Assembly: GCA_963747235.1 (NCBI GenBank)
Contig: CAVVEU010000004.1
Coordinates: forward strand, 32,001-96,000
Length of the DNA stretch: 64,000 bases
DNA from: an uncultured Candidatus Rokubacteria bacterium
GTDB lineage: Bacteria; Methylomirabilota; Methylomirabilia; Rokubacteriales; CSP1-6
Direction: 5' to 3'
Part shown: positions 27,619 to 57,881 of the stretch, piece after piece
Position numbering within the stretch: position 1 is the first letter of the stretch
Layout of the letters: every line of letters begins with the position of its first letter
Notes under the pieces: generated by a model
Database searches by the model: none
Told to the model about the DNA's origin: nothing
What the model saw: only the letters and a program-made list of their open reading frames with translations
Made by a program: the position numbers and the translations under genes

Positions 27619-28374
27619 CTAGCGGGCGGCGGGGGCGGGACGCGCCGGAGTCAGGTGCTCCAGCAGCCGGCCGAAGCCGGTGATCGGGCGGGTGACGCCG
27701 AGGGCGCGGAGCGCGGTCCAGATCGTGGACTGGTTGGAGCTCACCGCGGGCTTGCCGGTGCGGGCCTCGATGGCCGCGATGGCCTCGACCGAGCGCCACG
27801 CGGTGCAGGAGCAGAGCAGGGCGTCCGCCTCGGGCCGGCAGACCCGCGCGGCGAACTCGGCCACTTCCTCCGGGTCCTGATCGTTGATGCCCTGGTTGCC
27901 GGACGCGGCGGCGCGGGGCTCGCCGTCCACGTTCAGCACCTCGAAGCCCTGGGCCTCGAGGTAGGCGCGCAGCCGCTGGTTGTTCCACTCGGGATACGGC
28001 GTGGCCACCGAGAGCCGCCGGGCCCCGAAGAAGCGGAGCGCCTCGACCACCGAGGGGCTGGTGGCCACCGCGGGCACGCCCGCCTCGCGCCGGATCAGCT
28101 CGAGCATCTCGGTGTCCCAGCCCGGGCCCTTGTAGAAGCTGCCGGTGGTGCACCCGTAGACCACGACGTCCACGTGGGCGGTGGCCAGGTAGCGGGCCCC
28201 GCTCTCGATCTCGCCGTTCATGCGGACGTACGCGTCGTCGCCGGTGCCCTCGTTGGTCATCCACAGGCGCTGGCCGTGGATGGTGACGTCGCGCGGGACC
28301 GTCAGCTGGAAGTCGGCCTCGCACGTGGTGTTCGTGGAGGGGATCATCACGCCGATGCGCTTGCGCGGGCTCAT
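27619..28374 (-). CDS. Maleate cis-trans isomerase / Asp-Glu racemase family protein
   Basis: RIGVMIPSTNTTCE, YGCTTGS and CSCTA (both catalytic Cys present), SSNQ. Confidence 0.9.
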   Translation of the reverse strand: MSPRKRIGVMIPSTNTTCEADFQLTVPRDVTIHGQRLWMTNEGTGDDAYVRMNGEIESGARYLATAHVDVVVYGCTTGSFYKGPGWDTEMLELIRREAGVPAVATSPSVVEALRFFGARRLSVATPYPEWNNQRLRAYLEAQGFEVLNVDGEPRAAASGNQGINDQDPEEVAEFAARVCRPEADALLCSCTAWRSVEAIAAIEARTGKPAVSSNQSTIWTALRALGVTRPITGFGRLLEHLTPARPAPAAR

Positions 28375-28910
28375 AGGACGCAGAAGCCCTGCGCCTCGAC
28401 CCCGAGCGGCACGTTGAACTTGCTGCGGAAGTTCTCGAGCGCCACCGCGGCGGTCAGCTCGACGATCTGGGCCTCGTCGTAGCAGGTCTTGAGGCGCGCG
28501 AAGAGCTCGTCGCTCACCCGCTGGCCGGTGATGGTCATGGCCTCCGCGTACTCCAGCGCCACGCGCTCGGCGTCCGAGAAGCGCCGGCTCTCACGCCAGG
28601 TCGGGATCTCGCGCACCTTGTCCTCGTCCGCCCCCGCCTGCATCCCACGGGATGCATTGATGTCGATTCAGAAGGGACAGCCGTTGATCAGGGCGACGCG
28701 GAGGTAGATCAGGGGCAGCAGCGCGGCGGGGAGCCGGCCGGACTTCTCGATGGCGGCGCCGAGCTGCTTGGCCGCCTTCATGATGGGCGGGCAGTGCGCG
28801 AAGACCTTGGTGGGATTCAGGAGCCCGCCGAAGATCTCGCGCTCCCGGGCGAACACGTCCTTCAGGATCGGGTCGCCGCCGTCGTCCTCGATCTCGCTGA
28901 CTCTGGGCAT
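28371..28910 (-). CDS. AhpD/carboxymuconolactone decarboxylase family selenoprotein (UGA at 28668-28670 read as Sec, motif CPFU)
   Basis: ORFs 28668..28928 and 28371..28643 are in the same frame, separated only by TGA in RVALINGCPF*IDIN, where the family has CxxC. Confidence 0.85.
28639..28656 (-). promoter_or_regulatory. Putative bacterial SECIS hairpin
   Basis: UGCAUCC-CGUG-GGAUGCA perfect stem starting 11 nt after the UGA; GU in loop. Confidence 0.7.
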
Positions 28911-28948
28911 GGGAAACGGAGTATACAATAGGGCCCGCGGAGGGCGCG

Positions 28949-29930
28949 ATGAGCGACGTACGGCATCGGACGGTGGAGACGAACGGCATCCGCATGCACG
29001 TGGCCGAGCAGGGCGACGGGCCGCTCGTGCTCCTCTGCCACGGCTTCCCGGAGTCCTGGTACTCCTGGCGCCATCAGCTCGCGGCGCTCGCGGCCGCGGG
29101 CTTCCACGCGGTGGCCCCCGACATGCGCGGCTACGGCCAGACCGACCAGCCGGCGGAGATCGACCAGTACACGCTGCTCCACCTGGTCGGCGACATGGTG
29201 GGCCTGGTGGACGCGCTGGGCGGCGGGCCCGCGGTGATCGCGGGCCACGACTGGGGCGCGCCCGTCGCCTGGCACGCCGCGCTCCTGCGTCCCGACCGCT
29301 TCCGCGCGGTGATCGGACTCAGCGTGCCGTACCGGCCGCGCGGCTCGGTCCGCCCGTCCACCGCGATGCCGCAGACCGACGACGCGATCTTCTACCAGCT
29401 CTACTTCCAGGCCCCGGGCGTGGCGGAGGCGGAGCTCTCGCGGGACGTGCGGAGCAGCATCCGCCGCGTGCTCTACTCGGGCTCGGGCGAGGGCCGGCAG
29501 GCGCGCGTCGGGCTCGGCGATCCCGCCGCGGTCGGCATGGTGCCCCGCGCCGGCGGGTTCCTGAGCCACACCGCCGAGCCGCCCGCGCCGCCGTCCTGGC
29601 TCACCGAGGCCGACGTGGACTTCTACGCCGGCGAGTTCAGCCGCGCGGGCTTTCGCGGCGGGCTCAACTGGTACCGCAACATCGACCGCAACTGGGAGCT
29701 GATGGCCCCGTACGCGGGCGCGCGGGTGACCGTGCCCGCCCTCTACGTTGCGGGCGACCAGGATCTGGTGGTCCACTTCCGCGGCATGGACCAGCTCCTG
29801 CCGAACCTGAAGCAGTTCGTCCCCGAGCTCCGCCGAGACGATCATGCTGCCCGGCTGCGGGCACTGGACGCAGCAGGAGCGCCCGAAGGAAGTCAACGAC
29901 GCAATGATCGCTTTTCTAAACACCCTGTAA
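28949..29930 (+). CDS. Epoxide hydrolase family alpha/beta hydrolase (frameshift ~29835)
   Basis: HGFPESW, PDMRGYG, GHDWGA, LNWYRN, GHWTQQERP in shifted frame ending TAA 29930. Confidence 0.9.
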
Positions 29931-29947
29931 GCCCACAGGAGGCCTCC

Positions 29948-30448
29948 ATGGGACAGACGCTCGAGCAGCTCGCGGCCACGATGCACGACATCCTCGCGGC
30001 GGAGCCCGGCCCCGCCGGGCGCGAGAAGGTTCGCGCGCTGGTCGAGGAGGTGCTCAAGGACGAGGCCTTCGTCGCGAAGCACCTGGGCGACGACGTGCCG
30101 GAGCGCAAGATCCTCTTCGAGGATCCGCAGCTCGGCTTCTGCATCCTCGCCCACGTCTACAAGGGCGCGCGCGAGAGCAATCCCCACGATCACGGCCCGA
30201 CCTGGGCCATCTACGGCCAGGCGCGCGGCGAGACGCTCATGAACGACTGGGCCCTCGTCGAGCCGGCGAGCGACGCGAAGCCCGGGAAGGTGCGGCACGT
30301 GCGGAGCTATCCCCTGAAGCCCGGGATGGCCCACGTCTACAACGAGGGCGATCTCCACTCCCCGCGCCGCGACGGGCCGACGCGCCTCATCCGCATCGAG
30401 GGCCGGAACATGGACAAGGTCAAGCGGCTGGCCTACGACAAGGTCTGA
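29948..30448 (+). CDS. Cysteine-dioxygenase-like cupin
   Basis: PHDHGPTWAIYG, GDLHSP; AGGAGG RBS. Confidence 0.8.
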   Translation: MGQTLEQLAATMHDILAAEPGPAGREKVRALVEEVLKDEAFVAKHLGDDVPERKILFEDPQLGFCILAHVYKGARESNPHDHGPTWAIYGQARGETLMNDWALVEPASDAKPGKVRHVRSYPLKPGMAHVYNEGDLHSPRRDGPTRLIRIEGRNMDKVKRLAYDKV

Positions 30449-30468: not shown

Positions 30469-31732
30469 ATGAAAGAGAACCTCCGCTTCGTCGATTCCGA
30501 CATGCACATCATGGAGCCGCCCGATCTCTTCGAGCGGTACCTGGATCCGAAGTTCCGCGACCGGGTGGTCCTGCCGATCGGAGCCGACGGCCGGCCGAAG
30601 CGCGGCACCATCGTGATCGACGGATTGCCGAGCACGATGGACGCCGAGATGCAGCAGTACCGCAAGCGCGGCCGCGGCGGGGCCGCGAGCGCGCACAGCA
30701 CGCAGCCGCTCTCCGGCTCGCGGCTGCAGGGGAGCGAACCGGCTCGACTTCGCGATCGAGCGCAACTACGACCCCGAGGCGCAGGTGATGGGCATGGCGA
30801 TCGAGGGCGTGGACATCGCGGTGCTCTACCCGACGACCGGCCTGAGCCTGCTCGCCCGCGACAACATGGATCCGCAGCTCTCGCTGGCGCTCTGCCGGGC
30901 CTACAACGACTGGATCCACGAGTTCTGCCGGTACAGCCCCGAGCGGCTCAAGTTCGTGGCCATGCTGCCGGTGCACGACGTGCACCTGGCCTGCCGGGAG
31001 CTGCACCGGTGCGTGCGCGAGCTGGGCGCGGTCGGGTCCTTCATCCGCCCGAACCTGCTCAACGGCCACTACTGGCACTCGAACTACTGGGATCCGCTCT
31101 ACAGCCTGCACGAGGAGCTCGACGTCACCTGGGGCTTCCACGAGGGGACCGGCGCCTGGAACTCGCACATGAACGTGCTCTACGGCGAGAACCGGTTCTA
31201 CCGCCACGTGGCCAGCCACTGGATCGAGATGCAGCAGGCGTTGATCGCGATGATCGTCGGCGGGGTGTTCGAGTTCCATCCGAAGCTGCGCGTCGGCTTC
31301 CTCGAAGCGCAGAACTCGTGGGTGCCCGGCATCCTGTCGCGCATCGAGTGGGACTACCCGCAGTACCGCGACACCCACGCGCCGTACCTCTCCCTGACGC
31401 CGAAGGAGTACTTCCGGCGGAACTGCTGGGCCGCGGTGGAGGGCAGCGAGCCCGAGATCGAGGCGACCGCGGGCCTGATCGGCGCCGACCGGATGTGCGT
31501 GTCCACCGACTACCCGCACTTCGACTCGAACTTCCCCAACGTGTCGGAGAACGTGCTCAAGAGCTGCTCGCGCGAGACCGCGGCGCAGATCCTGATGGGC
31601 GGGGCGCACCTCTACGGGTTCAGCGAGGCCGACTTCGCGAAGGCCGACGCGGCGGCGGCCGCGCACGCGGGCACGAACGGAGGGCCGGACGCGGCGCCCG
31701 CGAAGCGGCGAGGGGTAGCGGTCGGCGGCTAG
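30469..31732 (+). CDS. Amidohydrolase family (Amidohydro_2) protein (frameshift ~30735)
   Basis: DSDMHIMEP, RAYNDW, GFHEG, FLEA, STDYPHFD. Confidence 0.9.
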
Positions 31733-31742
31733 GCGCGGCGGG

Positions 31743-32819
31743 TCACGGCCCGGTCGTGACCCGCCCGTTCGCGGGCGCCATCGCGGGCGCCACCTGCTCC
31801 GCGAACAGGCGCATCGAGCGCAGGGCCAGGCTCGTGTCCAGGCCCGGCAGCGCCATCAGCAGCAGCACGTGCTGGTACCCGGTGGCGTCGAGATACTTCT
31901 GCAGGCCCTCGCGGACCTCGTCCGGCGTGCCGATCAGGGCCCAGCCGTCGTCGAGATATTCCCGGAAGGTGCGGAGCCGCAGCAGTGAGCGGTTGAACGA
32001 GCCGGGCACGGTGCCGCCGGTGGAGTCGGAGCGCAGGACCGACATCTTCCGCTGGTAGCCCATGAACGGGCCCTCGATGGCGCGCAGCGCTTCCTCGCGA
32101 GAGGGCGCCACGTGCACCACGCGCATCCCCCACGCCTGACGCTCCAGCGCCGCCACCTCGGCGTCCGACCGGCCGATCGCCAGCGACTCCTCGCGGTAGA
32201 GCTGATGCCGGCGCTGCAGCTCCTCGATCGGCACGAAGAACGAGGAGAGCGTGGGCAGGCCCAGGCGCGCGGCCGAGTGCACGCTGTCCTCGCTGTTGGC
32301 CGCGATGTAGAGCGGCGGGTGCGGCCGCTGCACCGGGCGCGGGCGCACGTGCAGGCGCTCGGCCGAGTGGAAGCGGCCCGCGAAGTCGAACGGCTCGCCG
32401 CTCCACGACTTCTGGATCAGCGTGATGCCTTCCTCGACGCGGGCCCGGCTGTCCTCGCGGTCGGACTGGAAGGTCTGGTAGTCCTGCAGCGTGCCGCCGC
32501 GCCCGATGCCCACGTCGAGCCGGCCCCCGCTCACCACGTCCAGCACCGCGAGCTGCTCGGCCAGGTCCACCGGGTGATGGAGCGGCAGCAGGCTCACGCC
32601 CATGCCGAGCCGCAGCGCGCGCGTGCGGGCGGCCAGGAACGCGGCGAGCACCGGCGGGACCGGGCAGAGGCCGTAGTCGTTGAAGTGGTGCTCGGCGATC
32701 CAGACCGACGAGTAGCCGAGCGATTCGGCGGCCAGCATCTGCTCGAGGCCCGAGTCGTAGACCGCCCGCTCGCTCCACTGGTCATCACGTTGCATGAGGT
32801 AGAAGAGTCCGAAGTCCAT
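31743..32819 (-). CDS. LLM-class flavin-dependent oxidoreductase
   Basis: WIAEHHF, AEQLAVLDVVSGGRLDVGIGRG, PRPVQRPHPP. Confidence 0.92.
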   Translation of the reverse strand: MDFGLFYLMQRDDQWSERAVYDSGLEQMLAAESLGYSSVWIAEHHFNDYGLCPVPPVLAAFLAARTRALRLGMGVSLLPLHHPVDLAEQLAVLDVVSGGRLDVGIGRGGTLQDYQTFQSDREDSRARVEEGITLIQKSWSGEPFDFAGRFHSAERLHVRPRPVQRPHPPLYIAANSEDSVHSAARLGLPTLSSFFVPIEELQRRHQLYREESLAIGRSDAEVAALERQAWGMRVVHVAPSREEALRAIEGPFMGYQRKMSVLRSDSTGGTVPGSFNRSLLRLRTFREYLDDGWALIGTPDEVREGLQKYLDATGYQHVLLLMALPGLDTSLALRSMRLFAEQVAPAMAPANGRVTTGP

Positions 32820-57132: not shown

Positions 57133-57881
57133 CTACGACCAGACCTCCGTCGGGAACGGCAGCCCCTCGAGGTCGGCGTCGGTGAGCGGCGCGTCCTTCT
57201 CCACGCCGCAGCTCGTCGAGGAACCAGTAGATCTGCCGCAGGTGCTGGGCCGAGTGCCACGTCGTGCGCTCCATGAACTCGGGCGCCGACTGCGGGCCGT
57301 AGTAGGTGCTCACCTCGCCGTCGCACCAGCCGGGCCGCGCGAAGTAGGCCCGGAGCCGCTGGCGGACCGTCTCCCCGTAGCGCGCCACCGCGTCGCCGTC
57401 CGCCATCTCGGGCGGCGCGTTCTCCTCGAACCACGCCCCGTCGAGGTTGCCCTGCTCGCGCGTGTCCGCGTACGAGGCGGCGACCCGGAACACGTGGAAG
57501 CCGAGCTGGTGCACGGTCCGATCGCGCCCCGGGTACTTCATGCCGAGGTGCTCGCGCGGCACCTGCCGGATCGCCCGCTGGGTCGCGTCCAGGACGACGT
57601 CCATCCGCTCGGCGAGCTGGGCCGGGCTCAGCTTCTTCGGCGCGCGGTAGCGCACGCCCGACCAGCTCGGCCAGCGCCTGCGGGTTCCAGCCGTGCACGA
57701 TGCGCTCGCCCACGATGGTGGCGGGCACGCGCATCACGCCGAACGCTTCGAGGTCGGCCCGGCGCTCCGGCTGAGCCTCGACGTCGAAGCCCTCGAAGGC
57801 CACTCCCCATGACGAAAGCAACTCTTTCGTCTTGGCGCAGGAGCTTCAGCCCTGGCGGTAGTAGACGCGCGCGCGGTCCAT
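57133..57881 (-). CDS. Glutaredoxin-like (UxxC)-DinB fusion selenoprotein (UGA at 57846-57848; frameshifts ~57655 and ~57205)
   Basis: MDRARVYYRQG*SSCAKTKELL...RVPATIVG...HGWNP thioredoxin fold, followed by a DinB-like domain with GFHVF and WHSAQHLRQ. Confidence 0.82.
57807..57835 (-). promoter_or_regulatory. Putative bacterial SECIS hairpin
   Basis: CCA-A-GACGAAAG-AGUUG-CUUUCGUC-A-UGG starting 10 nt after the UGA. Confidence 0.7.

Follow-up and report, generated by a model that had tools for sequence, protein, structure and literature searches.

A TGA-interrupted AhpD/CMD-family gene from a Candidatus Rokubacteria bacterium as a probable selenoprotein gene with an in-frame SECIS hairpin

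AhpD-like selenoproteins carrying selenocysteine (Sec) in a CxxU motif are a known kind, described in 2005 and 2008, and the initial annotation of the gene discussed here was right to place them in the existing literature. The Sargasso Sea survey lists an 'AhpD-like protein' (COG2128, 27 sequences) and a 'CMD domain-containing protein' (4 sequences) among the CxxU families (PMC1088965), and the GOS (Global Ocean Sampling) survey gives 299 sequences of 'AhpD-like 1' and 70 of 'AhpD-like 2' (pfam02627), the latter more abundant in non-marine samples (PMC2398784). Such proteins are listed again in a 2026 review and in BSepDB (PMC13188914, PMC13326102); the review gives TIGR01926 as the model for 'AhpD-like protein' selenoproteins, and it singles out a Methylomirabilota metagenome-assembled genome (MAG) with 63 predicted selenoprotein genes (PMC13188914). 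Here we describe a gene of this kind in a stretch of 64,000 nucleotides from an uncultured Candidatus Rokubacteria bacterium (contig CAVVEU010000004.1, positions 32,001 to 96,000, assembly GCA_963747235.1), which as a whole we call the window. In our opinion it is very probable (roughly 0.93) that positions 28371-28910 of its minus strand encode a 179-residue selenoprotein of the AhpD/CMD fold, in which the UGA at codon 81 would be read as Sec. What is specific to this case is the subfamily, which lies below the curated NCBIfam thresholds, nearly always uses Sec and is routinely split by gene callers. A literature query combining Rokubacteria with selenocysteine returned nothing relevant by title or abstract, supplements not being covered.

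The likeness to the Sargasso and GOS sets is considerable: they have the same PF02627 fold, Sec as the second redox residue of CxxU, an in-frame selenocysteine insertion sequence (SECIS) after the UGA, and Cys homologues. Those sets come from marine plankton, whereas the present subfamily belongs to Methylomirabilota of soil and groundwater and to Alphaproteobacteria; this comparison is one of descriptions, not of sequences. The SECIS of the type known from E. coli fdhF is likewise a hairpin just past the UGA within the coding sequence, with a small apical loop carrying G and then U and a spacing inside 16-37 nt; the hairpin described below has a shorter stem (7 bp), a 4-nt loop and no sequence similarity to it.

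The gene was initially seen as two fragments of one reading frame, split by a TGA and nothing else, with no strand given. Read-through translation bears this out: on the minus strand, 28371-28928 is a single open frame when TGA is read as U, and open reading frame (ORF) calling under translation table 11 lets it fall into a piece of 86 amino acids (28668-28928) and one of 90 (28371-28643). The peptide around the internal TGA reads RVALINGCPF-U-IDINASRGMQ. The TGA itself is codon 81 (28668..28670) and directly follows the codons for Cys78 (TGT), Pro79 and Phe80 (28671..28679), so that it takes the second redox position of C78-P-F-U81. Homologues begin with MPRV at the ATG at 28910-28908, and an ATG or GTG stands exactly 80 codons 5' of the internal TGA in 104 of 108 orthologous loci. 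This start upholds the proposed length of 179 residues with Sec at position 81, the coding sequence at 28371..28910 consisting of 179 codons and a terminal TGA, and it places the 5' end first given, 28925, 15 nt too far out. The true stop is the TGA at 28373-28371. The 108 orthologues share this end point, 52 of them stopping with TAG, 45 with TGA and 11 with TAA.

Comparison with relatives gives the internal TGA its weight. The order-level sample comprised 61 genomes of the same order, the window's own included, and 48 of them (again counting the window's own) match the gene. An in-frame TGA is found in 83 of the 86 matches listed; of those without it, two are confined to the part past the site, and the third (32% identity) crosses it without a stop. 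At the 30 best same-order loci, the window's own copy among them, the two halves are both conserved and align with exactly one codon between them, which is TGA in all 30. We also searched species-representative genomes in two ways. With a Cys-form protein (P0004) as query, 80 loci were obtained and 79 analysed, one (L105) being dropped because its alignment started one residue late; codon 81 is TGA in 77, TGC in one (L056, the query's own locus) and TAA in one (L118). A scan with the C-terminal half likewise gave 80 loci, two of which (L154, L193) were dropped as partial, and here codon 81 is TGA in 77 of 78 and TAA in the remaining one (L203). The two sets have contigs in common and cannot be counted as independent. 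L118 and L203 are one and the same contig, CAVZBZ010000016.1, from an Alphaproteobacteria MAG. Its hairpin is otherwise intact, and its TAA marks a copy that was inactivated recently or else stems from a base error. Cys occupies the position of codon 81 in five full-length homologues (P0004, P0073, P0098, P0104 and P0105), and U81 aligns with the second Cys of the CxxC in PA0269 and Bmp8, two proteins of solved structure. Together with the TGC locus, this is the pattern of TGA or Cys that had been expected at this codon.

Past the TGA the coding frame goes on at 45-96% identity, and constraint at the protein level persists in the downstream half, where the first alignment has 14 invariant columns. 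The carriers include Methylomirabilota/Rokubacteria MAGs, which are the nearest (up to 96% identity), as well as Reyranella, Enhydrobacter, Vineibacter, Stellaceae and Burkholderiales, isolates among them. In the species-representative genomes, at least 483 stretches code for a protein related to the C-terminal half. The group is widespread in Methylomirabilota of soil and groundwater and in Alphaproteobacteria and Betaproteobacteria, with Reyranella, Enhydrobacter and Vineibacter among its cultured carriers, and it uses Sec almost always and Cys rarely. Many genomes of the order also hold two to four paralogues with 30-43% identity to the query, nearly all with one in-frame TGA, which points to several distinct lineages of AhpD-like selenoproteins in the order; the window's own genome holds no further copy at E <= 1e-20.

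The second line of evidence is the hairpin. A stem UGCAUCC/GGAUGCA with the apical loop CGUG, beginning 11 nt past the UGA, had been noticed at the outset, and it is there exactly as described, within the coding sequence at 28639..28656 of the minus strand. The 11-nt spacer (28657..28667) covers Ile82, Asp83, Ile84 and two bases of Asn85; the 5' arm of the 7-bp stem then takes 28656-28650, the loop 28649-28646 and the 3' arm 28645-28639. A check against a published model of the bacterial SECIS (bSECIS) had been suggested, and we used the limits that PMC13188914 quotes in its Fig. 2 legend: a loop of 3-9 nt, a stem of 4-16 bp, a G as one of the first two loop bases, a distance of 16-37 nt between UGA and loop, and a minimum free energy (MFE) of -7.5 kcal/mol or lower. 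The present hairpin falls within all of them, having a loop of 4 nt, a stem of 7 bp, G as its second loop base with U next to it, a distance of 18 nt between UGA and loop and an MFE of -10.1 kcal/mol.

Codon usage in relatives adds to this. We looked for synonymous change in the 43 codons that have at least four synonyms and whose amino acid is shared by 90% or more of the 30 related loci. Only two of the 43 lack such change, Ser87 (TCC in 30 of 30) and Gly89 (GGG in 30 of 30), and both lie in the stem; Arg88, the loop codon, is variable (CGG 23, CGT 6, AGG 1). Codon 86 has A as its third base in all 30 loci (GCA 23, TCA 7), so GCA is fixed in 23 of the 23 orthologues with Ala there; at other conserved Ala sites GCA occurs in at most 1 of 27-30. 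Of the three codons singled out beforehand as atypical, AAT, GCA and CGT, it is therefore GCA that stands, while the other two vary among relatives: codon 85 is AAT in 12 and AAC in 18 of the 30, and CGT is found in six.

Pairing is conserved as well. Among the 30 relatives 94.0% of the cells are paired, against 27-66% when the partners are slid, and two pairs are changed on both sides, in that one genome family of the order has CUCAUCC/GGAUGAG instead of UGCAUCC/GGAUGCA, that is, two compensatory pairs. In the 77 TGA-bearing orthologues from proteobacteria and others, 91.4% of the cells are paired (33-53% when slid), both partners are altered in five of the seven stem pairs (63 cells), and none of 500 shuffles reaches any of the five measures. 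The two central pairs of this set occur as AU, GC, GU and CG, and as UA, GC, CG, UG and AU. The loop begins equally far from the UGA there but is 5 nt long, so the register differs; four sequences in the other register were kept and counted as unpaired. At the only Cys-form locus (L056) there is no hairpin, and only two of the seven positions pair. That the hairpin would be kept where the TGA is kept was a point on which the proposal could have failed, and it is kept in both sets. On these comparative grounds we regard the hairpin as being under selection at the RNA level.

The third line is the decoding machinery, a search for which had also been proposed. The window's genome is 88% complete, in 42 contigs. 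One of these (C14) holds selA (578.1 bits, cut-off 268), selB (365.2 bits, cut-off 242) and tRNA-Sec (69.3 bits, cut-off 47; called by ARAGORN as tRNA-SeC with anticodon tca), clustered together. A selD is present at 227.8 bits (cut-off 125) on a second contig (C27), and another copy is on a third (C8). In all five congeners both selD genes are whole and one of them has an in-frame TGA; by its sequence, one SelD of these congeners is itself a predicted selenoprotein. Of the 61 same-order genomes 51 have a selB, namely 41 of the 48 that carry the gene and 10 of the 13 that lack it. Since selB is nearly universal among them, its co-occurrence with the gene is uninformative.

Several findings weigh against the selenoprotein reading. 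The folding energy is the first. A 35-nt stretch with the hairpin folds at -10.1 kcal/mol with a z-score of -1.27, and 20 of 200 shuffles are as stable; a 66-nt stretch has a z-score of +0.63. Energy alone is insignificant in such G+C-rich sequence, and it is the conservation that makes the hairpin significant. Within the order, the compensatory pairs are confined to one genome family and may be a single event, and 425 of 500 shuffles match the same-order count of pairs changed on both sides. The stem codons also encode conserved residues, so part of their conservation is at the protein level. As to the machinery, both selD copies of the window's genome are in two or three pieces in different frames (C27:46033-46945 and C8:303114-303868), which we take to be assembly indels because the genes are whole in the five congeners; this agrees with the early remark on indels. 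Seven of the 48 gene-carrying genomes, 78-99% complete, have no selB at E <= 1e-60. Finally, the protein reaches no specific NCBIfam cut-off, and the His that in PA0269 stands four residues after the second Cys is Asn85 here, so that the proton-relay or catalytic mechanism of AhpD is not simply transferable.

It may be argued that UGA81 is normally a stop, and that the products are an N-terminal peptide of 80 residues, a separately initiated C-terminal protein, or both. The databases at first sight look that way. A protein search returns mostly matches of about 103 amino acids at 76-94% identity, which reach no further than the C-terminal 48% of the query; these entries, present in many metagenomes, begin right after the TGA (MDIN... 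or MQAG...), are called from an ATG or GTG there, and when close carry names such as 'hypothetical protein' or 'alkylhydroperoxidase family enzyme'. Bacteria short of selenium do terminate translation at Sec codons. Against this, the Pfam CMD domain and the single globular fold that is predicted both run across the TGA, the CxxC/U motif would lose its last residue, the Cys-form homologues are single proteins of 180-190 amino acids, and the start 80 codons upstream is kept in nearly all of the orthologous loci. We consider a normal stop at UGA81 very improbable.

The same low standing has to be given to a UGA read as Trp, Cys or Gly, through an altered code or near-cognate suppression and with no selenocysteine involved. 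Four full-length database proteins (P0002, P0003, P0005 and P0007) do have G, S, W or L at position 81, some of them possibly through gene calls made under other genetic codes. Yet TGA is the true stop of this very gene and of 45 of its 108 orthologues, which speaks against a genome-wide reassignment; moreover, the genome has a complete apparatus for decoding Sec, a covarying hairpin of the bSECIS type lies exactly where SelB needs one, and the site is the redox Cys in the Cys forms. An ordinary residue at this codon is hardly to be expected.

The weakest alternative, a TGA due to faulty sequencing or assembly, or to a recent nonsense mutation, in what would be a pseudogene, can point to frame breaks elsewhere in the assembly, as in selD, and to the existence of inactivated copies, as the TAA contig may be, but we regard it as effectively refuted by the comparative data, since the same codon is TGA in independent assemblies from at least two phyla, isolates included, with a constrained downstream half and with public gene calls that start directly after it in many metagenomes, so the early judgement that a TGA at a catalytic Cys position would not be a random error seems sound.

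We therefore return to a selenoprotein with Sec at position 81, and to the question of which family it belongs to. Pfam CMD (PF02627) scores 57.7 bits against a cut-off of 23, with the domain running across the TGA, and the AhpD core domain TIGR00778 passes narrowly (30.4 bits, cut-off 27.8, residues 65-114 in the numbering from a TTG start). The top NCBIfam match is NF053654, 'GroundWater_YciW: YciW-related (seleno)protein', which its curators flag as having selenoproteins among its members. The alignment is end to end (residues 7-181 on profile positions 1-175 of 179, E 1.3e-43), and its 148.9 bits fall far short of the equivalog cut-off, 310; the orthologues of Reyranella, Enhydrobacter and a second Rokubacterial family reach 124-134 bits. 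The cut-off of TIGR01926, 'peroxidase-related enzyme', is missed too (38.3 bits against 81.8, with orthologues at 41-50 bits). Judged by these profile scores, the orthologous group is a sister subfamily of NF053654 and not a member of it, and a relative of the TIGR01926 proteins that by the curated threshold is likewise not to be counted among them.

An AlphaFold model built from an alignment of 52 sequences is all-helical, with nine helices, a mean pLDDT of 95.3 and a pTM of 0.90, and its top Foldseek matches in the PDB are all AhpD-like. The closest solved structure, both by sequence and by Foldseek, is PA0269 of Pseudomonas aeruginosa (2ijc, 2o4d, 7xw1). A single-sequence search gives E 9.2e-18, a profile search 2.2e-24 and Foldseek 1.7e-7 (2ijc), the last with 139 columns at an rmsd of 1.2 A. 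The CxxC of PA0269 lines up with C78/U81; the protein differs in having Cys and not Sec, in lacking the first ~35 residues, and in the His at the place of Asn85. Other structural matches are 2oyo (TMq 0.88) and the AhpD of D. radiodurans (6k40, TMq 0.86). The best full-length match among characterised enzymes is the tetrabromopyrrole debrominase Bmp8 (6ohi, 6ohj), with a profile E of 2.5e-22, a TMq of 0.80-0.82 and an alignment over residues 10-170 that again sets its CxxC against C78/U81, while it has only 21-23% identity, Cys in place of Sec, and neither the IDIN nor the QGFC motif. M. tuberculosis AhpD (1knc, 1gu9) shares the broad all-helical fold, the CxxC site and, going by its entry title, thioredoxin-like activity; the match is weak (Foldseek E 0.27-0.42, TMq 0.32-0.54), and the His residues behind the mutants named in its entry titles (H137F, H132Q) have no counterpart here. 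The ahpC gene is not among the neighbours of the locus, the rest of the genome not having been searched for it. With Asn85, the weak match to 1knc and 1gu9 and no neighbouring ahpC, the protein does not look like an AhpD proper, that is, one that reduces AhpC.

As for individual residues, C78 is invariant in all 52 aligned sequences, and GCPF stands directly before the TGA in all 78 loci of the C-terminal-half scan. Invariant or nearly so are C78, U81, D83, I84, N85 and the C-terminal QGFC, in which Q174, G175, F176 and C177 are each kept in at least 90% of the 52 sequences. Cys177 (codon 28380..28382) is in view of this conservation a possible additional redox residue. Cys40 is part of the consensus AHCPP, in which A38 and P41 are nearly invariant and Cys40 itself falls below the 90% list. 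The group is distinguished by its layout, MPRV...AHCPP...GCPF-U-IDIN...QGFC, by the near-exclusive use of Sec across two phyla, by Asn for the His of the AhpD type, and by two more conserved Cys, Cys40 and Cys177.

How such a protein would be made and what it would do can be proposed with some caution. SelB carrying Sec-tRNA(Sec) would bind the 7-bp hairpin in the coding sequence and deliver Sec at UGA81, and the terminal TGA of the same gene, which has no such hairpin context, would lead to termination. From fold and motif, Cys78-Pro-Phe-Sec81 at the start of a helix suggests a thiol/selenol oxidoreductase. In M. tuberculosis AhpD it is the second CxxC position that is the nucleophile. The selenolate of Sec81 would most likely attack an oxidised substrate, be it a peroxide, the sulfenic acid or disulfide of a partner, or another electrophile; Cys78, the presumed resolving thiol, would then react with this adduct to give an intramolecular selenenylsulfide, to be recycled by an external reductant. 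The chemistry of Bmp8 is reductive dehalogenation. It is a rather doubtful extension, drawn by analogy, that the group is a distinct, Bmp8-like selenoenzyme and not a peroxide-linked AhpD, namely a Sec-dependent reductive dehalogenase or electrophile detoxifier of soil bacteria. If true, bacteria would have in the AhpD fold a counterpart of deiodinase chemistry.

The neighbouring genes do not help with function. Downstream lies an Amdase-family gene (27619-28374, minus strand), whose ATG overlaps the selenoprotein gene's terminal TGA in an ATGA at 28371..28374; a gene resembling that of 3-hydroxyisobutyrate dehydrogenase and an alpha/beta hydrolase are the other neighbours. Genes like the Amdase, the 3-hydroxyisobutyrate dehydrogenase and the hydrolase recur in 5, 2 and 8 of the 30 related loci respectively, the window's own being counted, and none of the three is found at any of 80 other loci; at the two loci inspected, L065 and L053, the neighbours are unrelated, and no conserved operon was found. 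The neighbours are conserved only among the closest relatives, and for this reason they carry no information on what the protein does. On the 5' side, the ATG of the selenoprotein gene and that of the divergent alpha/beta hydrolase are 38 nt apart (28911-28948). No run resembling a Shine-Dalgarno sequence is obvious in this interval, and a TATACT lies 9 nt upstream of the selenoprotein ATG, a position that would fit a leaderless transcript; a scan of 28300-29100 for promoter and terminator consensus sequences found none.

A few other features of the window may be mentioned. We screened all 220 same-frame ORF-TGA-ORF junctions in it with Pfam, and only two have a domain across the TGA, the CMD gene and a small glutaredoxin-like ORF (PF00462, 1.1e-10). 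The latter, at 57606-57881 on the minus strand, is a second candidate selenoprotein, probably the one that the initial annotation counted as its first, MDRARVYYRQG-U-SSC..., with the TGA at 57848-57846 as codon 12 in a UxxC motif. An 8-bp hairpin with the loop AGUUG starts 14 nt past that UGA, and the 54-nt stretch folds at -22 kcal/mol (z-score -2.71; 3 of 200 shuffles as stable). On the plus strand, an ORF of 529 amino acids (30469-32058) has no Pfam match and is rich in Arg, Ala, Gly and Pro beyond its first ~100 residues, and in one of 499 amino acids (28949-30448) the alpha/beta-hydrolase domain is limited to residues 25-286. Indels seem to have disturbed both frames.

The knowledge of how selenocysteine is encoded is left unchanged by this gene, and its value is chiefly one of annotation: standard gene callers cut a selenoprotein gene in half, and no NCBIfam model reaches its specific cut-off for the subfamily. 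It adds one more entry to the selenoproteome of Methylomirabilota, and the cultured carriers make the biochemistry of the group testable.

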